NCBI GenBank assembly: GCA_949296295.1
Contig: CASFOM010000103.1
Location: 1-43,041 of the forward strand
Source: an uncultured Alistipes sp.
GTDB taxonomy: Bacteria; Bacteroidota; Bacteroidia; Bacteroidales; Rikenellaceae
Direction: 5' to 3'
DNA length: 43,041 bases
This document shows, piece after piece, positions 34,736-43,041 of the stretch. Below the pieces are notes generated by a model that ran no database searches, was not told the DNA's origin, and was given only the letters and a program-made list of their open reading frames with translations. The position numbers and the translations under genes were made by a program. How positions within the stretch are numbered: the stretch's first letter is position 1; each line of letters begins with the position of its first letter.

Positions 34736-34811
34736 GGAATATAGAAAAGAGAGGACAAGGTAACTTGTCTCCTGAAAAATAAAAGAAGTAGGAATAAAAA
34801 ACATATTTTTG

Positions 34812-34819
34812 TACCTTTG
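34812..34819 (+). promoter_or_regulatory. candidate -7 promoter box for dnaX
   Basis: TACCTTTG (TAnnTTTG) lies 27 nt upstream of the ATG at 34846. Confidence 0.5.
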
Positions 34820-34845
34820 AAATATTGCAGCCAATAACGGGAGAA

Positions 34846-36705
34846 ATGGAAAAATATGTTGTATCGGCCCGAAAATACAGGCCGGTGAATTTCGAATCGG
34901 TAGTCGGACAGTCACACATTACATCTACATTGCGAAATGCCATTATGCGCAATCAACTGGCACATGCTTATCTGTTTTGTGGACCTCGGGGAGTAGGGAA
35001 AACAACTTGTGCCCGCATTCTGGCAAAGGCCGTCAATTGTATGAATCCTGTCTCAAATGCCGAAGCATGTAACGAATGTGAGTCTTGTCGTGCCTTTAAT
35101 GAGGGACGTTCTTATAATATTCATGAATTGGATGCCGCTTCGAACAATTCTGTGGAATATATTAGGACTTTGACCGAACAGGTGCGTATCCCTCCTCAAA
35201 TAGGAAAATATAGCGTTTATATTATTGATGAAGCTCATATGCTTTCAGCAACGGCTTTCAATGCTTTCTTGAAAACATTGGAGGAACCGCCTGCTCATGC
35301 CGTTTTCATATTGGCAACAACGGAAAAACATAAAATATTACCTACCATTCTTTCAAGGTGTCAGATCTATGATTTTAAACGAATCAAAACAGAAGATGTA
35401 GTAGATTACTTGAAAAAAATTTCCGTCGCAGAGCAGGTACAGACGGATGATGAGTCTCTGCATATTATTGCTCGAAAAGCCGATGGATGTATGCGTGATG
35501 CTTTGTCCATGTATGACAAGGTGGTGTCGTTTTGTGGCGGAAACTTGAACTTTAAGGATACTGCTGAAGCATTGAATGTATTAGATTATGATACCTATTT
35601 CCAATTTACGGATATGTTGGCTGCCGGAGATTATGCTTCTGCTTTGGTTGCTTATGACCAGGTTTTGCAAAAGGGATTTGATTCTCAAACTTTTTTGTCG
35701 GGATTAAGTGCTCACTTGCGAAATTTGTTGGTAGCTCTTTCCGGGAATACTCGTTCTCTTTTGGAGGTGACCGGTTCTGTGGCTGAACGATATATGGCTC
35801 AGGCAAAAAGTCTTAAAATTCCTTTTTTGTATGATGGAATGAATATTATTGCTCAAACGGAAACGGTTTTAAGACAGACTTCCAATCTTCGTCTGCACAC
35901 AGAGTTGGCAATTCTGAAATTGTGCAACCTTTCTCCTGTGAAATTATCGGAAGGAGAAAATACGCGAGTATATTCATTACCCAATATATCGGAGGGGAAA
36001 AAAATAACTCCTGTAATAGAAAAAAAAATATCCGAGCCCGTTAAAACTTCTGAGACGAGGAACCCTGAACAGATCACTCCTTCTCAGGTGAAGGAAAAAA
36101 CTTCTGAACCTTCAAAAGTCCCGGACCAATCAGCTGCTGTTGAGGATGTGTCTTCGGTGAAACCTGACCGAACAAAGGAACAACCGAAACCGACTGTTCC
36201 TGCCAAACCTTCTGTTAAGGAACAGGAACCTGCTTCCCATACAGGGGGCTCTCGTTTAGGACTTTCTATAGGAGGCCTGTTAAAACAACAACAGGAAGCA
36301 CAACCCGAGAAAACGGAAAAAGAGTTGGACGAAGTCATATTGATAGCCGATTCAGATCAGGAAAAGGTTTTGGAAGGATGTAGAAATTTTGCTCAGGAAT
36401 TATCAGAAACCCGTCCTCGTTTGGTTACTCCTTTCCGAAAAGCAAAAATTGTTGAGGGAAAGATAGAATTGGTTGTGGCAAACGCTATTTTATCGGATGA
36501 AATATTGAATAATAAACATGAGTTGTTAATACGTCTGGAAGAGTTGTGCGGTATTCCGAAATTGGACGTGAATGTAATAGTAGATAAAAATGCGGAGGAG
36601 GTAAAAAGTGCCCCGGTTCGAGATGAAGATAAATTTAAGGTATTGCTTTCCGTAAACCCAAAACTCAGTGCTTTGTGCAATGCCCTCGATCTTGATTTTA
36701 CTTGA
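34846..36705 (+). CDS. dnaX: DNA polymerase III subunit tau/gamma
   Basis: The start is trimmed to MEKYVVSARKYRP at 34846. The AAA+ clamp-loader motifs 'GPRGVGKTT', the Zn module 'CNECESCRAF', 'IIDEAHML' and 'SRC' are present, followed by a Pro/Glu/Lys-rich linker and a C-terminal tau domain. Confidence 0.9.
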   Translation: MEKYVVSARKYRPVNFESVVGQSHITSTLRNAIMRNQLAHAYLFCGPRGVGKTTCARILAKAVNCMNPVSNAEACNECESCRAFNEGRSYNIHELDAASNNSVEYIRTLTEQVRIPPQIGKYSVYIIDEAHMLSATAFNAFLKTLEEPPAHAVFILATTEKHKILPTILSRCQIYDFKRIKTEDVVDYLKKISVAEQVQTDDESLHIIARKADGCMRDALSMYDKVVSFCGGNLNFKDTAEALNVLDYDTYFQFTDMLAAGDYASALVAYDQVLQKGFDSQTFLSGLSAHLRNLLVALSGNTRSLLEVTGSVAERYMAQAKSLKIPFLYDGMNIIAQTETVLRQTSNLRLHTELAILKLCNLSPVKLSEGENTRVYSLPNISEGKKITPVIEKKISEPVKTSETRNPEQITPSQVKEKTSEPSKVPDQSAAVEDVSSVKPDRTKEQPKPTVPAKPSVKEQEPASHTGGSRLGLSIGGLLKQQQEAQPEKTEKELDEVILIADSDQEKVLEGCRNFAQELSETRPRLVTPFRKAKIVEGKIELVVANAILSDEILNNKHELLIRLEELCGIPKLDVNVIVDKNAEEVKSAPVRDEDKFKVLLSVNPKLSALCNALDLDFT

Positions 36706-36721
36706 TGGTGTGTATATAACT

Positions 36722-36756
36722 AGTTCTAAATAACTGTAACGGTTATATTTAGAACT
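36722..36756 (+). terminator. hairpin after dnaX (probable terminator; marks the left edge of the low-GC islet)
   Basis: AGTTCTAAAT (36722-36731) pairs with ATTTAGAACT (36747-36756), plus further interrupted inner pairs. No clear U-tract follows. Confidence 0.45.
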
Positions 36757-36878
36757 GGTCAGAATGATTTTGCAATAGGTCGGTTTATTGTAATGTAGTA
36801 TTCGTTATCTGCGACTGCATTTATAATTTATTAGTACACTATAGTTATAGTATGTTGAGTACATGCTGTCGTGTTTTT

Positions 36879-36886
36879 TACTTTTG
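36879..36886 (+). promoter_or_regulatory. candidate -7 promoter box for the C-gene/R-gene transcription unit
   Basis: TACTTTTG (TAnnTTTG) lies 24 nt upstream of the ATG at 36910. Confidence 0.4.
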
Positions 36887-36909
36887 TCAAAAGGAAGAAT
36901 TTCTTAATA

Positions 36910-37124
36910 ATGCAAAAAATAAATATCTTGGAGGTATTCGGACATACTCTCTGTAACCTTCGAGTTGAGAAAGGTTTTCTCATGAGTAACTTGCGGATAA
37001 AGTAATTCTCTTCCGAACATATATTCGTATGATAGAGCGTACCGAAAAGAATATTCCTTTATGTAATATTGAAAAAATTTCTAAAGTCTTATGTGTTGGT
37101 CTTTTTGGCTTGGTGAGCGAGTAA
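36910..37124 (+). pseudogene. decayed controller (C-protein-like) XRE-family HTH gene
   Basis: My hand translation from ATG 36910 gives MQKINILEVFGHTLCNLRVEKGF..., which then runs to TAA at 37003-37005. The HTH continues in the next frame as (F)SHE-TAA(36987-36989)-LADKVILFRTYIRMIERTEKNIPLCNIEKISKVLCVGLFGLVSE*, with its stop at 37122-37124. Joining the frames needs 1 nt restored in the T-run at 36975-36978 and read-through of the TAA. The 'RTYIxxIERxxxN...IEKI' block is the signature of R-M controller proteins. Confidence 0.65.
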
Positions 37125-37149
37125 TAATTACAAACTAAAACTGATATTT

Positions 37150-38229
37150 ATGAGCGATCGATTAGAGACAATTGCCAAAGAAAAATTTGGTGTAGATAGT
37201 GAGACGCTACTTGATATTTTAGAATCTAGCCACGGTGCTGATGGTTATATCCTTGGTGCATTGGGAGAGACGAAATTTAAGGAATATGCAGAAAAGAAAG
37301 GTTTTGAAGTCTTGCGTATTAAAGAAAAACCTGAAGGAGCATTTGACTCAAAAAGTGATGATGCAAAAGGGGACTTTTATATCAGAAAAAAAGGTTCTAA
37401 AAAAGACGAATGGTATGTTGTTGAGTGCAAAAGTGTTAAATCAAATGCAGAGGCTCGTACTTCTTTTGGCGATAAGAGGTCATGTGTTGGCGCTTTAAAG
37501 AAACATTCTGTTACAAGAAAAGCTCATATTGAAGGGCTTTATCTTAAAGGAAAAGCTAAATACGAAAAGACTAAAGAAGGATGGCCTACGCCCATCGGAG
37601 ATGTAACTCTCTTCGCTGATTTGAATAGTATGCTTGAGAAAATGAGAGAAAATGGCATCGACGTATCATCTGTAAAAAACTATAGGAACGCTTATAATCT
37701 TGCACAAAAGAGCAACTTAAATTTTGGAATAAAGTTCCCAGACTTTCGTTGGTCGGCAGCGAATCCTGGCCCTTGTGTCCCAGATTTAAGCGGCGTATTT
37801 AAAACAGAACAAGAAATCAATGAGTGGGTATCTCGTTTCTCTGAAGATGATTTTTCAAAAGAGGCTTTTTGGAATTTAAAAGCTCCTTTAAGACTAATTC
37901 AAACCCATATGCCTTCTACTCGAGTTGATGTCCTTGGTATTGAAAGTACAGGCCCACTTGTAACAGAATTTAATATTCTATGCCTTGATTTGTTTATTAG
38001 AACGGGAAAACATGAGCTAGTCTTTGTTAATAGCCAAGATTTGAATCCTCAGGCATCTGCTCCTAACCATCTTCAGCAAAATTATACGGTTGACATTCTT
38101 GTAGAAAAAGACGGTTTTAAACGTCATGAACTTCTTAAACCATGGTATAACGACCTAGATGAGTGTATTACCAGTTCGAAACCTACACCACGAAAAATCG
38201 ATATGACACAGATCGATAATCGAAAATAA
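37150..38229 (+). CDS. PD-(D/E)xK nuclease-fold protein; candidate restriction endonuclease of unknown family
   Basis: The 359-aa ORF starts 25 nt after the C-pseudogene stop. The order E40 ('GALGETKF' helix), D75 ('KGDFYI' strand) and E92-x-K94 ('WYVVECKS' strand) fits the PD-(D/E)xK core. I recognise no motif in residues ~110-359. Confidence 0.6.
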   Translation: MSDRLETIAKEKFGVDSETLLDILESSHGADGYILGALGETKFKEYAEKKGFEVLRIKEKPEGAFDSKSDDAKGDFYIRKKGSKKDEWYVVECKSVKSNAEARTSFGDKRSCVGALKKHSVTRKAHIEGLYLKGKAKYEKTKEGWPTPIGDVTLFADLNSMLEKMRENGIDVSSVKNYRNAYNLAQKSNLNFGIKFPDFRWSAANPGPCVPDLSGVFKTEQEINEWVSRFSEDDFSKEAFWNLKAPLRLIQTHMPSTRVDVLGIESTGPLVTEFNILCLDLFIRTGKHELVFVNSQDLNPQASAPNHLQQNYTVDILVEKDGFKRHELLKPWYNDLDECITSSKPTPRKIDMTQIDNRK

Positions 38230-38254
38230 TAAATACGTGCATTGTTCACTACAC

Positions 38255-38296
38255 AAATGTGTGTTATATTTGTCATTACAATGATAACACACATTT
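38255..38296 (+). terminator. R-gene terminator hairpin with an embedded -7 box for the methyltransferase gene
   Basis: AAATGTGTGTTAT (38255-38267) pairs with ATAACACACATTT (38284-38296): a 13-bp perfect stem with a 16-nt loop, running into a T6 tract (38294-38299). TATATTTG (TAnnTTTG) at 38265-38272 lies at the stem/loop junction, 48 nt upstream of the ATG at 38320. Confidence 0.55.
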
Positions 38297-38319
38297 TTTA
38301 TTGTATAATAAAGAGATAT

Positions 38320-40281
38320 ATGATTTCTATTGATAACCTCCTAAAGAAATTTGAAGAGATTCATAATTTTATTTATGCAAATGATGGTCTTTCTCCTCAG
38401 CAGACTCTCGATGAGTTTTTAAAAATATTATTCATCAAAATATATGATGAAAATAACAGGCTTAGCCAGTTTGCTGTTTCGAAGGAAGAGTTTGCAATGT
38501 CTTCATCGGGTATAGACTCTCCTCTCAATCATCGTATCTCTTCATTGTTTACAAGAACAAAGCAGGAGTATGCAGAAATTTTTGATCCTGATGACAAAAT
38601 AAAACTATCAGGTAAGTCAATAGGATTTGTAGTTAATAAATTGCAAAATATTTCATTAGGCGGTTCATCTACAGACGCTAAAGGATTAGCATTTCAGAAG
38701 TTTCTTACACATCAGGATAAAGAAGGTAGAGGACAATATTTCACTCCAGAACCAGTGATAGACTTTTGTGTCAAAATGATAAAACCAAAATTTGGGGAAA
38801 CAATAGTTGATCCTTGTTGCGGTAGTGGAGGGTTTATTTTTACAGCTTACAATTATATTATTGGTAATGAGCCTCAAACCGATAAGTCTGAATTGATCGC
38901 TAATTATTTGTTTGGAAGTGATATAAGTAAAAGCATTACAAGAATTGCAAAAATGAAATTATTACTTGAGGCTAACGTTCAGAGTAATGTTCACTGCCAG
39001 AATTCACTTGAAGACCTCGACACATTGATGCTTTCTTTTGGCCACGAAAGTCGTTTGCAAGAAGGATTTGATATACTCCTTACAAATCCTCCTTTTGGTA
39101 CTGCTGGGAAAATTATGGATTCTTCATTGTTGTCGAAATATGATTTGGGGCACAAATGGGAAGGCTTAAATGGTAATTTTAAGATGTCTACTGCCATTTG
39201 TAATGCGCAACCAGCCGAAATTTTATTTATTGAAAGGTGTTTGCAGCTGTTAAAAGAAGGTGGTAGAATGGCAATTGTTCTTCCTAATGGCCATTTTGAG
39301 AATCCATCGCTTAATTACTTGCGAGCATATATAAAGGAAAAAGCAAATGTTCTGGCTGTCATTACCCTCCCTCAGGAAACATTCGTTCCTTATGGAACAG
39401 GCGTAAAGACATCCCTTTTGTTTCTTGAGAAAGAGTCAGCTAATACAAAAACAACGTATCCGGTCTTTTTTGGAAAAGTAACCAAACCTGGGTATCAAGG
39501 GAATAAAAATGGTACTCCTATCTACAAAAAAGACAATAATGGATCATTACTATTTGAGAATGGAGTACCTATTATTGACGAGGATTTTTCAGTTGTATTA
39601 AACGATTATCGAGATTTTCAACGAAATGGGAAAGTCGAAACGACCAATTCATATAGTATTGAGTATAGTGAAATGAATGACCGAATGGATTACGACTTTT
39701 ATTCTCCAGCATACAAGTCTATGTTTGATCAGTTGGCAAAGAATTCTGTTAGATTAGGAGATATTGTTGAAATCGTAAAAAAGAAAAGCCCAATACTTAA
39801 AGACAAGACAGCGATAGTTGAATATGTGGAATTATCCGATATAAATGCACATTCATTAGAAATCATAAATTCAACCACTTTTGCCGTGCATGAGTTGCCC
39901 AGTCGAGCTTCATATGAATTAAAAAATGGAGATATTATTACTGCAATAGCAGGAAATTCTGTTGGAACAAGGAAACATGCGACAGCCCTTGTGACAGAAT
40001 CAACTGAAGGTGCAATATGTACAAATGGATTTAGAGTCCTTCGTAATCCGAAAGTTAATCCATATTATTTGTTGTATTATTTCAAAAGTGATTTGTTCTT
40101 GAAACAGATGATGAGATTCCGTACAGGAGCTGCGATACCGAATGTCTCAGATGCAGATTTGATTAATGTGTTGATTTACCTCCCTTCAGAGAGTAAAATT
40201 CAAGATATTGGCAATTCCGTAAAAAGGGCTTTTGAACTCAGAGCTGAGAGTACAAAAATTTTTAATTCAATTACTTTATAA
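38320..40281 (+). CDS. gamma-class (HsdM/Eco57I-like) N6-adenine DNA methyltransferase fused to a single HsdS-like target-recognition domain
   Basis: The start is trimmed from the TTG at 38242 to the ATG at 38320 (MISIDNLLKKFEEIHNFIY...), giving 653 aa. It has 'GQYFTPEPV', motif I 'VDPCCGSGGF' (~38806-38835) and motif IV 'NPPFG' (39085-39099). The C-terminal ~180 aa ('VRLGDIVEI...NGFRVLRNP...YYLLYYFKSDLFLKQMMRFRTGAAIPNVSDADL...LPSESKIQDI') look like one type I S-subunit TRD plus a conserved helix. Confidence 0.85.
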   Translation: MISIDNLLKKFEEIHNFIYANDGLSPQQTLDEFLKILFIKIYDENNRLSQFAVSKEEFAMSSSGIDSPLNHRISSLFTRTKQEYAEIFDPDDKIKLSGKSIGFVVNKLQNISLGGSSTDAKGLAFQKFLTHQDKEGRGQYFTPEPVIDFCVKMIKPKFGETIVDPCCGSGGFIFTAYNYIIGNEPQTDKSELIANYLFGSDISKSITRIAKMKLLLEANVQSNVHCQNSLEDLDTLMLSFGHESRLQEGFDILLTNPPFGTAGKIMDSSLLSKYDLGHKWEGLNGNFKMSTAICNAQPAEILFIERCLQLLKEGGRMAIVLPNGHFENPSLNYLRAYIKEKANVLAVITLPQETFVPYGTGVKTSLLFLEKESANTKTTYPVFFGKVTKPGYQGNKNGTPIYKKDNNGSLLFENGVPIIDEDFSVVLNDYRDFQRNGKVETTNSYSIEYSEMNDRMDYDFYSPAYKSMFDQLAKNSVRLGDIVEIVKKKSPILKDKTAIVEYVELSDINAHSLEIINSTTFAVHELPSRASYELKNGDIITAIAGNSVGTRKHATALVTESTEGAICTNGFRVLRNPKVNPYYLLYYFKSDLFLKQMMRFRTGAAIPNVSDADLINVLIYLPSESKIQDIGNSVKRAFELRAESTKIFNSITL

Positions 40282-40333
40282 TTGGTCAAAAGAAGAGACT
40301 GTTTCAAAATAAACTTTGAGATGGCCTCATTTG

Positions 40334-40374
40334 AATAGAGACTGTATCATAATAGGTGTGATACAGTCTCTATT
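40334..40374. terminator. terminator hairpin shared by the methyltransferase gene and the convergent DUF1080 gene
   Basis: AATAGAGACTGTATCA (40334-40349) pairs with TGATACAGTCTCTATT (40359-40374): a 16-bp perfect stem with a 9-nt loop. It sits 13 nt from the stop of the minus-strand gene at 40387. Confidence 0.7.
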
Positions 40375-40386
40375 TATTAAATCCTT

Positions 40387-41739
40387 TTATAATTCTTTGA
40401 TTTTTATATTTTTAAACCATACTTCATCTCCGTGGTCCTGTAATAGAATATTGCCTTCCGAAGCATTCCCGAAATTAGGCCAGTTCTTATATTTGCTGTA
40501 ATTGACCAAGGCCTGCCACATCTGATTGTTTCGATCGTATTCAAGGAGTTTTCTCCCGTTCAACCAATGTTCTACATGATTGTCTTTTACTACAATCATA
40601 GCCGTATTGAATTCTCCTTTACGGAACCATTTGTCTTCCGGAGCAGGAATTAAGTCATACAATGAACCCAACTTACGGTTGCCGCGAACACCTAATTTGG
40701 CATCCGGATGTTTGGCATCATCCAATATCTGGAATTCACAGCCGATTGCAGACCCTTCTCCTTTGTTCATTGTCGGATCTACAAAATATTTGATTCCACT
40801 ATTGGCTCCTTCGGTAATTTTAAAATCAACCTTCAAAATGAAATTTTTATAGGTACGTGTCGTTACTATATCTCCTCCATTTGTAGATTCTCCTCCGTTC
40901 CCTTTTTGCACTTTCAATATCCCATTTTCAATGGTCCATCCTTTCTCCGGGAAATGATCCAATTTCGCTCCCCGCCATCCTTCTGTGGTCTTGCCATCCC
41001 ACAATAGTTTCCATCCTTCGGCCTTTTCCTTATCTGAAAGAGAGTTCGGAATGGTATTGACTTCCGGAGCTGCCTGTGATTCGGGGGTAAGATATTTTTC
41101 CACATCTTCCGTACAAATACGAAGGTTTCTCCAACGGATGGTTTTCCCTTCATCTTCTGCCTTACTGATTTGATGTACTTGAAGTGCTATAAACCCTTCC
41201 GGAGTCATATCATCCCGTAAATTGGCACAAGGAATTCCGTTAATCCAGGTCCGAATGATCGGTCCAAAAGCTTCTATGCGGGCTTGATTCCATTCCCCTT
41301 TTTTAAAGGCTTTTTTCCCCGGTTCGTTAAGGGTTAGTGGGTAGAGCCATCCTCGCCGGGCTTCGTCATAAATACCGCCTGACCATGCTCGGTCTGAAGG
41401 ATCTATTTCAAATTGATAACCATGGACCCGACCTTTATTATAACTTTCTTTACTTTCACTACGTAATTGTACTCCTGAATTCAGACCGTCATCTACTTTG
41501 AACTCAAATTCAAGAATGAAATCTCCATAAGTCTTCGGGGTTACCAGGAAGGTGTTGGGGGTCCCTCTTTTTGATATTCCCACAATGGCTTTGTCTTCTA
41601 TTTTATATTCTGCTTCTCCATTAAGCACTTTCCACCCTTTGAGGTTCTTCCCGTTAAACAAGGATTCCCATTTCTGGGCTGACACTGTTGTAGTGGCCAA
41701 TAAAAGAGCCCCGCACAACCAAAAATTTTTTATATTCAT
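40387..41739 (-). CDS. secreted protein with two tandem DUF1080 (3-keto-disaccharide hydrolase-like, ConA fold) domains
   Basis: 450 aa with a signal peptide. Each half starts with the 'W(E/K)xLFNGKxLxGW' type motif ('[15 protein letters not shown]', '[15 protein letters not shown]') and ends with the 'I(A/L)LQxH...(W/R)F(K/R)NI' type motif ('FIALQVHQ...IRWRNLRI', '[17 protein letters not shown]'). Confidence 0.75.
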
Positions 41740-41751
41740 TTCCTTTTATCT

Positions 41752-43041
41752 TTATAGTTTATAAAAATCTTCCCAACCTTTGCGAGGAGGCATTCCTGAT
41801 AACATCGCATTTGCGAAATCGTTATTCGTAAAGCGTTTGTTTTTGATGTCGAAAAGAAGTTGCGTATTTAACCGTTGAGCAATGACTCCTAAACAGAACA
41901 CTTGCGTCATAGGACCGAAGATTTCAAATGGAGAACGGGTTTTCTCTTCTCCACAGCAAGCCCGTAAAAAGTTCTCAAAATGATTGGACGGACTTTTCGG
42001 TACCTCGGGTAACTTGCTTGCCATTTCTTTGGCTTTTTCCTCCGGAATAATGGAAAGAGTGCTTCCATGAGTTCCCCCTTTAAAGGTCAAATCACGAGAA
42101 TATATGATTTTCCCTGGATTCAGTTTCGTATCTTTAATGTCTCCCTGACTGCTTGCCGGAATATTCGGATCAAGAGCCGAAATGCCATAACCGTCGGGTA
42201 GAGGAGGAAGATTGTCCAAACCATCGTACCACGTTACATCTACTGGCGGCATCTTTTTTCGTTGTGGAAAACGGAACAGGATGGTGGAAGAGTAAGGGAA
42301 GAAATAATCGTTATGCCCTTCTGCTTTCAACATATTGATTTCGTAAGGCAATCCGAGTTCCAAAAATTCATGTACCGTATCCAAAATATGGGCTCCCCAG
42401 TCTCCTAAAGCTCCCATGCCGAAGTCGTACCAGCAACGCCAATCTCCATAGTGGTATTTCGAATTATAGTCGTGGTATTGGGTAGAGCAAAGCCACGTAT
42501 TCCAGTCCAACGTTTCAGGAATAGCTTGTGCTTCCGGATATTTGTAAATGTCTGCACTCCATTTGTGCCAACGACGGGAGTTGTTCATGTGTGCCGTTAC
42601 GGCTGTTACATCTTTGATAATACCGGCTTCCTGCCATGCCTTGAATTGGAAATAGTTGGCTTCTGAATGTCCTTGATTCCCTACTTGTGTCACTGCTTCC
42701 GGATGTTGCCGGGCAGCTTCCATCATTAACTCCGCTTCTAAAAAAGTACGAGCCATGGGCTTTTCTACGTAAACATGTTTCCCATGAGCAAGTGCCAACA
42801 TGGAAATCGGAAAATGTGAATGGTCCGGGGTGGCTATCGCTACCGCTTCTATTTCATTGCTAATCCGATCAAACATTTGACGAAAATCCTTAAACCGTTT
42901 CGCATTCGGATACATTTTCATAACAGCCTGAGTGTGCTTCGCTCCCATATCTACATCACATAGAGCAACTACATTCACCCGATTCGTTTTGGCAAATTCT
43001 CGAATAATTTGCTCTCCTCGGTTGCCGATACCGCTGTAGGC
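41752..43041 (-). CDS. Gfo/Idh/MocA-family NAD(P)-dependent oxidoreductase (5' end outside the window)
   Basis: The reading frame stays open to the window edge. Upstream of the ORF-track start, the reverse complement translates to AYSGIGNRGEQIIREFAKTNR-VNVVALCDVD, containing the Rossmann 'GIGNRG'. The 'HVYVEKPMA' (EKP) motif is present. The stop lies 12 nt before the DUF1080 gene start, so the two likely form an operon. Confidence 0.85.
   Translation of the reverse strand, partial: AYSGIGNRGEQIIREFAKTNRVNVVALCDVDMGAKHTQAVMKMYPNAKRFKDFRQMFDRISNEIEAVAIATPDHSHFPISMLALAHGKHVYVEKPMARTFLEAELMMEAARQHPEAVTQVGNQGHSEANYFQFKAWQEAGIIKDVTAVTAHMNNSRRWHKWSADIYKYPEAQAIPETLDWNTWLCSTQYHDYNSKYHYGDWRCWYDFGMGALGDWGAHILDTVHEFLELGLPYEINMLKAEGHNDYFFPYSSTILFRFPQRKKMPPVDVTWYDGLDNLPPLPDGYGISALDPNIPASSQGDIKDTKLNPGKIIYSRDLTFKGGTHGSTLSIIPEEKAKEMASKLPEVPKSPSNHFENFLRACCGEEKTRSPFEIFGPMTQVFCLGVIAQRLNTQLLFDIKNKRFTNNDFANAMLSGMPPRKGWEDFYKL

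Follow-up and report, generated by a model that had tools for sequence, protein, structure and literature searches.

A three-gene islet between dnaX and a DUF1080 gene

The analysed 43,041-nt stretch of contig CASFOM010000103.1 from an uncultured Alistipes sp. (the window) contains an islet of low G+C content, for which an earlier note had proposed a restriction-modification (R-M) module. Three genes of the same orientation are located there, and an inspection of the open reading frames (ORFs) verified the positions that had been reported. The first is a split gene for a helix-turn-helix (HTH) protein of the HTH_3/XRE type, the controller (C) pseudogene, at 36910-37124 of the + strand, with frame halves at 36910-37005 and 36993-37124. 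It is followed by R (37150-38229, +), which encodes a candidate restriction endonuclease of 359 aa, an assignment based on invariant alignment columns, an AF2 model, local Foldseek matches and the linkage to the third gene. This third gene, M~S (38320-40281, +), encodes a protein of 653 aa that was assigned by Pfam, PDB, AF2 and Foldseek comparisons to the gamma-class N6-adenine DNA methyltransferases, fused to one Type I-like target recognition domain (TRD). The spacer between R and M~S (38230-38319, +) is the M~S promoter region.

The inserted segment spans from the stop codon of dnaX to that of the DUF1080 gene (36709-40384, +; 3,676 nt). As a comparison, two contigs designated L178 and L179 were reached via a DUF1080 homologue that is 89% identical to the window gene, and both have the gene order Gfo-DUF1080-dnaX, with DUF1080 and dnaX convergent. 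A blastn comparison of the window with L178 yielded homology only at 34772-36708 and 40385-43041. These flanks have 77-78% nucleotide identity, while the relative has 106 unalignable nt where the window has 3,676 nt. The synteny check that the earlier note had suggested for this junction thus revealed an empty site. As a related species has dnaX and DUF1080 106 nt apart without the islet, the islet is an insertion. The dnaX/DUF1080 intergenic sequences of the window and the relative could not be aligned, which sets the interval between the two stop codons as the limit of resolution for the insertion point. In species-representative genomes the best match of dnaX had 57% identity, and its neighbours differed from those in the window. 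Exact-protein look-ups of the flanking genes led only to conspecific contigs, which break at the islet borders.

An independent line of evidence came from site avoidance in the host DNA. In the host part of the window (39.5 kb; 1-36756 and 40334-43041) the sequence GAA-N4-TTC does not occur, while 24.1 sites are expected (p = 3e-11). The absence is restricted to spacing 4, and the spacings N0-N3 and N5-N9 are present at normal numbers. GGATCC is likewise missing from the host DNA of the window (0 versus 17.4 expected). The whole window contains just two GAA-N4-TTC sites, and both are located inside the islet, where 1.9 are expected. Because the sites are present there at the expected number, the islet has escaped the long-term avoidance by the host, and this exemption supports the insertion independently. 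Together with the empty site and the unrelated neighbourhoods of related cassettes (see below), it identifies the islet as horizontally acquired and inserted between the dnaX and DUF1080 genes of a Bacteroidales host, as had been proposed earlier for a module with a decayed C gene, R and M~S. The avoidance of GAA-N4-TTC and GGATCC implies that other restriction systems, encoded outside the window, act on the host lineage. Conspecific contigs are likewise depleted in these sites, a related species (L177-L179) is only mildly depleted, and a distant Rikenellaceae metagenome-assembled genome (L013) is not.

The islet also differs from its surroundings in base composition. It has a G+C content of 34.8% versus 40.8% outside, the lowest among all 3.6-kb windows of the stretch (bottom 0.6%), and the G+C content at third codon positions is 0.26-0.27 in the islet genes versus 0.35-0.42 in the flanking genes. 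The drop in composition is real but modest. Hairpins are present at both boundaries, as the earlier note had reported. The hairpin 3′ of dnaX (36719-36759, without strand assignment; inverted repeat I16, 14-nt arms, 93%) could be a property either of the host or of the islet. The hairpin between M~S and the convergent DUF1080 gene (40334-40374, without strand assignment; repeats I6 and D4, 16-nt arms, 100%) is probably a bidirectional terminator. Directly past the M~S stop codon an 18-nt partial third copy of the terminator arm is located (40294-40311 versus 40337-40354, 89%), which may be an insertion footprint or an alternative pairing partner. No tRNA genes were found in the window and no direct repeats flanking the islet, in agreement with the earlier inspection. 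Several conspecific contigs (ERZ17292902/3; the ends of L095 and L096 and the start of L007) break at the islet borders or within the C pseudogene, and L095 terminates exactly at the hairpin at 40334-40374.

The C, R and M~S genes

In R, four putative catalytic residues were identified, i.e., E40 (37267-37269), D75 (37372-37374), E92 (37423-37425) and K94 (37429-37431). E40, D75 within the motif GDFYI, and E92-C-K94 within the motif VVECK are invariant across 26 R homologues. In an AF2 model of R (pLDDT 89.6, pTM 0.86) the strands 52-57, 76-80 and 88-95 carry signature residues. In both libraries the local Foldseek matches that ranked best were minimal PD-(D/E)xK nucleases, namely I-Ssp6803I, Hjc, RecU, T7 endonuclease I and VRR-NUC as well as "PD(D/E)XK endonuclease domain" proteins, and those with I-Ssp6803I, Hjc, RecU and VRR-NUC had probabilities of 0.6-0.98. 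Whole-chain Foldseek searches against PDB and BFVD yielded nothing significant. With the catalytic motif placed on the modelled alpha-beta-beta-beta-alpha-beta core, R is classed as a PD-(D/E)xK-type protein of an uncurated family. The earlier proposal of a PD-(D/E)xK ORF of an orphan family was thereby borne out, and searches of R against Pfam, NCBIfam, PADLOC and the PDB sequences gave zero matches.

At 90% identity the R family falls into at least 314 clusters, none of which has a name. When 1.84 billion representatives were searched exhaustively with a profile, only 99 proteins were found, and the family is therefore compact and without a bridge to a larger known family. A characterised homologue of R may already exist in REBASE. 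The window clade has an insertion of about 45 residues in R (residues ~147-192; 37588-37725), for which the model confidently gives two helices. The insertion is shared by the proteins P0001-P0004 and the first R gene of locus L097, and it is missing from the common 315-aa form.

The homology of M~S begins at 38320, and a longer, TTG-started ORF opens at 38242. Pfam identified an N6_Mtase domain (1e-37) and a Methylase_S domain (3e-07), the latter as a single stretch of residues 476-628. The TRD is located at about 39649-40179. An HTH domain was not detected in M~S by Pfam. Motif I (DPCCGSGGF, residues 164-172, 38809-38835) precedes motif IV (NPPF, 39085-39096, within TNPPFG at residues 255-260), and the TRD is C-terminal, and thus M~S was assigned to the gamma class. 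Sequence matches in PDB were Type I M and S subunits and BsaXI, and the S-subunit matches covered residues 476-631. The AF2 model (pLDDT 78.5) is composed of an N-terminal HsdM-like helical domain, the methyltransferase core, the TRD and a 27-residue end helix (residues 624-650, 40189-40269). Foldseek matched this model with Type I M subunits, CamA, PacII and BsaXI. The modelled terminal helix is suited to coiled-coil dimerisation, and the dimer is a prediction.

This architecture belongs to a described class. Homodimeric gamma-methyltransferases are single M~S chains with a Type I-like TRD and C-terminal coiled-coil helices, which act only as pairs on interrupted palindromes; M.XmnI, M.DrdI as well as M.XcmI are examples, and most Type II systems with bipartite sites probably use such enzymes (Loenen et al., 2014; PMC3874165). 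In addition, an engineered M-half-S fusion was found to dimerise and to methylate a palindrome (PMC6158711). The window M~S has the motif order, the single fused C-terminal TRD and the C-terminal helix of this class. The earlier view that a fusion of M with half an S subunit is unusual and has AhdI as its sole precedent therefore had to be given up (PMC3874165). The likeness with XmnI, DrdI and XcmI is one of described architecture and includes the single-chain gamma m6A domain, one TRD, a C-terminal helix and the pairing with a separate protein, which in the cassette is the candidate nuclease R. The recognition sites of these three enzymes are GAA N4 TTC, GAC N6 GTC and CCA N9 TGG, respectively (PMC3874165). 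In contrast, the specificity of the islet cassette is probably another one (candidate CAC N4 GTG), and its R belongs to no curated family.

Other assignments were tried and rejected. The best NCBIfam matches of M~S were the proteins MAD2 (methyltransferase part, 313 bits) and MAD5 (TRD part, 54 bits) of the methylation-associated defence system (MADS), but both scores are far below the respective cut-offs of 720 and 400. Furthermore, methyltransferase and TRD are fused in the cassette, and other MADS genes are not among the C, R and M~S of the islet. A Type I system is disfavoured, as neither the islet nor the related cassettes contain an HsdR-like ORF and the single TRD is fused. The Types IIG and IIB are disfavoured because M~S has no nuclease domain and R is a separate gene in all loci.

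The C gene was compared with its intact counterparts in sister cassettes. Intact C genes of relatives encode HTH_3 proteins of 76-91 aa and abut or overlap R, so that a small XRE-type HTH gene is located directly 5′ of R, as is typical for C-dependent Type II systems; in the window it is a pseudogene. The alignment revealed two lesions. An ancestral CAA codon has been changed to TAA at 36987-36989, and because the conspecific contig L008 carries the same nonsense codon, it is not a sequencing error. The second lesion is a 1-nt deletion in the T-run at 36975-36978, which is specific for the window, with four T versus five in L008. After repair the window C scores 15.5 bits with the HTH_3 model (cutoff 23 bits), versus 59-62 bits for intact relatives. 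Judged from these lesions, C is inactivated in the window strain. Because of the nonsense codon and the frameshift, R is probably poorly expressed in this strain. The assembly breaks in conspecific contigs and the different T-run lengths suggest strain-level heterogeneity at the decaying C gene.

Upstream of C, alignment A3 with sister cassettes revealed the remnant of a C-box, a putative operator of the controller (36837-36859, +). Its core TTATAGTATGTTGA (36845-36858) is invariant across the sister cassettes. The distal arm reads ATACTATAA in L009, L011 and L012 and has diverged in the window, where only the proximal part is left. Inverted ACTATAGTAT repeats are also present upstream of C in a distant clade. 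Two conserved types of palindromes precede C, i.e., GGAC-N4-GTCC followed by GTTGTA, or inverted GCTAACTATAGTAT repeats, and we take both types to resemble classical C-boxes. Such palindromes 5′ of C are a feature of C-dependent Type II systems and are candidate operators. A candidate -7 promoter element of the C-R operon, TACTTTTG (36879-36886, +), is conserved as TACCTTTG in L009, L011 and L012. We take TAnnTTTG to be the -7 promoter consensus of Bacteroidota.

The cassette family and its promoter palindromes

To characterise the linkage of the three genes, 85 loci with R relatives were scored (80 metagenomic loci and 5 fetched earlier), and the presence of C was judged with three C queries. 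The methyltransferase gene is located directly 3′ of R on the same strand in all 68 evaluable loci, and the TRD is fused to the methyltransferase in 59 of 59 loci. A C-like HTH gene directly adjoins R or overlaps it in 65 of 78 loci. The recurrent form therefore consists of the HTH gene C, followed by R with about 315 aa and M~S with about 660 aa, in an essentially invariant order, and it was found in many unrelated genomic contexts; the neighbours of R relatives include an acyltransferase gene (L001), rpmH (L004-L006), an HhH-GPD gene (L009) and the genes of a Thermus thermophilus plasmid. This recurrence in unrelated neighbourhoods marks the cassette as mobile. No R homologues were found in phage genomes and in 2.9 million viral contigs, and the cassette is thus without a sign of being phage-borne. 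The M~S proteins are 61-68% identical among Bacteroidales, Chitinophagales, Saprospiraceae, Kapaibacteria and Nitrospirota, and in their sources they are labelled as no more than "N-6 DNA methylase" or "type I restriction enzyme M protein". Conservation of the TRD equals that of the catalytic domain (45-71%), which suggests one specificity across the whole family.

Several loci deviate from the common form. C was not recognised in 13 of the 78 loci (L100, L106, L117, L126, L131, L136, L143, L144, L150, L151, L154, L157 and L176), and at least in L176 a different HTH protein ends directly 5′ of R. In locus L097 (1326-5678) C and M~S are separated by two R-family genes in tandem, a long one of 361 aa and a short one of 329 aa, which are 47% identical and both contain the catalytic motifs. 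The pair may form a heterodimeric nuclease, or it may be a recombinant of two cassettes. A distant locus, L093 (5932-8834), is located on the Thermus thermophilus plasmid pTthSNM1-1c (NZ_AP025598.1). Its R homologue (26% identity, 92% coverage) is annotated as "hypothetical protein", overlaps the start of a 658-aa N6_Mtase plus Methylase_S protein, and the pair adjoins genes for ParA and a tyrosine recombinase. This locus indicates that the R-M~S pair is shared across phyla and can reside on plasmids.

The spacer between R and M~S has a common organisation throughout the family. A TTTG element is followed by box 1 ACACAAATGTGT, TAnnTTTG and box 2 CACAAATGTGT, and the start codon is located about 10 nt further on. 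In the window a -33-like TTG (38242-38244), box 1 (38251-38262), which is the only CAC-N4-GTG of the 43-kb window, and the -7 element TATATTTG (38265-38272) are found in this spacer. In the window clade (window, L009 and L011) the place of the second box is taken by box 1 and the -7 region in inverted copy. This copy generates a hairpin with 19-nt arms (38255-38296 in the window; dG of the spacer about -19 kcal/mol), which could also serve as an R terminator or attenuator.

The spacers of 76 loci (8.8 kb in all) contain 110 exact CAC-N4-GTG sequences, where 3.6 are expected, and at least one was present in 73 of the 76. The boxes are constant across both C-box types and are also present in cassettes without a recognisable C. 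It seems that the controller module is exchangeable while the boxes of the M promoter stay the same. Since they do not vary with the type of C-box, the boxes are disfavoured as operators of C. In L176 all four inner bases of the box are changed, while CAC and GTG are kept. Outside of the spacers the sequence is rare: it is missing from R coding DNA (0 versus 4.5 expected), it was found 3 times in M~S coding DNA (5.8 expected), and dereplicated host flanks contain 14 sites versus 24.8 expected, a deficit that is specific for spacing 4. An equal or stronger depletion is exhibited by only 1.3% of 448 comparable motifs. It is tempting to speculate that the promoter palindromes are the system's own target, CAC-N4-GTG, and from these distributions we would give this prediction about an even chance. 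It would be the specificity of OliI, of which AleI is an isoschizomer. The recognition sequence of OliI is CACNNNNGTG (PMC11203417). The similarity to OliI lies in the palindrome of the family M~S promoters, and the link is made by the inferred target only.

Interpretation of the islet and alternative explanations

Taken together, the islet is a genuine Type II R-M cassette, the kind of which is known and the controller gene of which has been inactivated. That it is an inserted C-R-M~S cassette with a homodimeric gamma-methyltransferase is very probable; this estimate applies to the kind of system and leaves the target aside. The earlier claim of an unusual architecture was not supported with respect to the kind of system, as homodimeric gamma M~S enzymes are known. 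What is new is found at the level of annotation, namely the uncurated nuclease family, its large size and strict linkage to a methylase, and the promoter palindromes that give a target prediction.

The cassette might work as follows. By analogy with M.XmnI, M.DrdI, M.XcmI and M.AhdI, two M~S chains would pair via their terminal helices, the two TRDs would read both half-sites of an interrupted palindrome, and one adenine per strand would be methylated. R, probably as a homodimer, would cut the same site when it is unmethylated. Two regulatory loops can be envisaged. In the first loop, as in AhdI, C bound to the C-boxes would drive C-R transcription late after entry into a new cell. In the second loop, conserved CACA-WW-TGTG palindromes bracket the -7 element of the M~S promoter, and their binding or methylation by M~S would turn this promoter off. 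In AhdI, C controls the CR promoter, which is weak and needs C for activation, and an AhdI site that overlies the -10 element of the MS promoter attenuates this promoter when methylated (PMC2275141). Both systems would share a C-controlled C-R operon and a Type I-like methyltransferase in which each M has one TRD, with a symmetric 2M:2TRD composition. The own site of AhdI (GAC N5 GTC) overlies the -10 element of the M promoter, and the cassette has candidate target palindromes that bracket the -7 element. In contrast to AhdI, which has separate M and S subunits and convergent operons, M and S are fused in the cassette, the three genes are co-oriented, the M promoter is located in the R-M spacer, and the C gene of the window is a pseudogene. 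In the window strain, with C broken and the distal C-box diverged, R would likely be expressed only at a basal level, while M~S would still be active.

Several observations weigh against parts of this interpretation. At the four inner positions of the box the choice of bases is strongly biased (A 93%, T 90%), and in an unbiased alignment all 12 positions are about equally conserved, which fits a plain protein operator as well. The depletion of CAC-N4-GTG in host DNA is only about 2-fold, and GTC-N4-GAC and CAG-N4-CTG are equally low. The cassette sequences are mutually related, so that the site counts in their coding regions are not independent. Regarding R, the best whole-chain Foldseek E-value in PDB is 0.2, and the nuclease assignment is based on a core of about 70 residues and the motif. 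Lastly, conspecific contigs carry intact and almost unchanged copies of R and M~S, so that no direct sign of a silent R is seen.

The conserved boxes allow a different explanation, according to which the ACAC-N4-GTGT sequences are ordinary operators for a DNA-binding regulator, which would be C or else M~S or R by way of another surface, while a different interrupted palindrome is the true target. The conservation of all 12 positions including the inner A-W-W-T would be expected in this case, two palindromes around a -7 element are a generic repressor layout, and the C protein of Esp1396I is reported to regulate the M promoter (PMC3488213). However, the boxes do not differ between two very different C-box types and persist in cassettes without a recognisable C, CAC-N4-GTG is never above chance upstream of C, and Pfam gave no indication of an HTH in M~S. 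Furthermore, L176 has exchanged the inner bases and kept CAC and GTG, and the N4-specific depletion extends to hosts and to the coding DNA of the cassettes. We consider ordinary operators to be a serious alternative, with a chance a little below even. The avoidance of GAA-N4-TTC raised the possibility that the cassette is an XmnI isoschizomer and itself the cause of the total avoidance by the host (0 versus 24.1 expected in the host part, at spacing 4 only), especially as M.XmnI has exactly the architecture of M~S (PMC3874165). This is highly improbable, because the flanks of about 80 other family hosts are not depleted (166 versus 149 expected; dereplicated 148 versus 134), the islet itself holds the expected number of sites (2 versus 1.9), sister cassettes do not share its site at 36894, and the promoters contain no conserved GAA-N4-TTC element. 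The host avoidance was therefore rejected as an indication of the cassette specificity.

Two further alternatives concern the activity of R. The module of the window might be a decaying remnant, in which R is effectively silent, M~S is an orphan methyltransferase and incoming DNA is no longer restricted. The two lesions in C and the diverged distal C-box arm point in this direction, as does the nonsense codon shared with a conspecific contig, which excludes a sequencing error, and AhdI-like CR promoters are weak without C (PMC2275141). On the other hand, the R ORF is intact with every family-invariant residue kept, only two amino-acid differences separate R from its conspecific copies (R and M~S differ from such copies by 1-2 residues), basal transcription could suffice, and 13 of 78 related cassettes have no recognisable C. 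A selection test on R after the loss of C comprised only 2-4 differing codons, too few to speak on relaxed selection. A remnant is thus conceivable, yet we regard it as somewhat less likely than not. In the other alternative R by itself is without DNA specificity and is active only when docked on (M~S)2, as a motor-less Type I-like or a split Type IIB-like enzyme. R and M~S are co-linear without exception (68/68), the unusually conserved C-terminal two-thirds of R have no structural neighbour, the M~S identity across phyla is high (61-68%), and relatives of Type I enzymes span such arrangements (PMC3874165, PMC6158711). But a size of 315-359 aa and the C-R-M organisation are typical for independent Type IIP enzymes, XmnI, DrdI, XcmI and AhdI pair such methylases with stand-alone nucleases (PMC3874165), and the faster divergence of R compared with M~S is what independent restriction endonucleases usually exhibit, which makes docking unlikely. 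Similarly small is the chance that R founds a structurally new family of restriction endonucleases, in which a minimal Hjc/RecU-like PD-(D/E)xK core is combined with a highly conserved region of about 200 residues without structural neighbour, and which may cut only when docked on (M~S)2, borrowing its TRDs. If true, this would be a natural motor-less "Type I-and-a-half" complex and a missing link between the Types I, IIB and IIP.

With the Type II cassette as the favoured explanation, the results have several implications. A widespread and strictly linked C-R-M~S cassette, which was found in Bacteroidota, Kapaibacteria and Nitrospirota as well as on a Thermus plasmid, is still annotated only as "hypothetical protein" and "N-6 DNA methylase", and a family model would allow defence-system finders to call these loci. 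The islet of the window is a clean example of a recent acquisition, with an empty site in a relative and an exemption from the site avoidance of its host. The conserved palindromes of the methylase promoters offer a testable prediction of a recognition site, CAC-N4-GTG, from sequence only, and, if this candidate target is correct, they would extend the AhdI-type feedback design, with the own site in the M promoter, to a large family.

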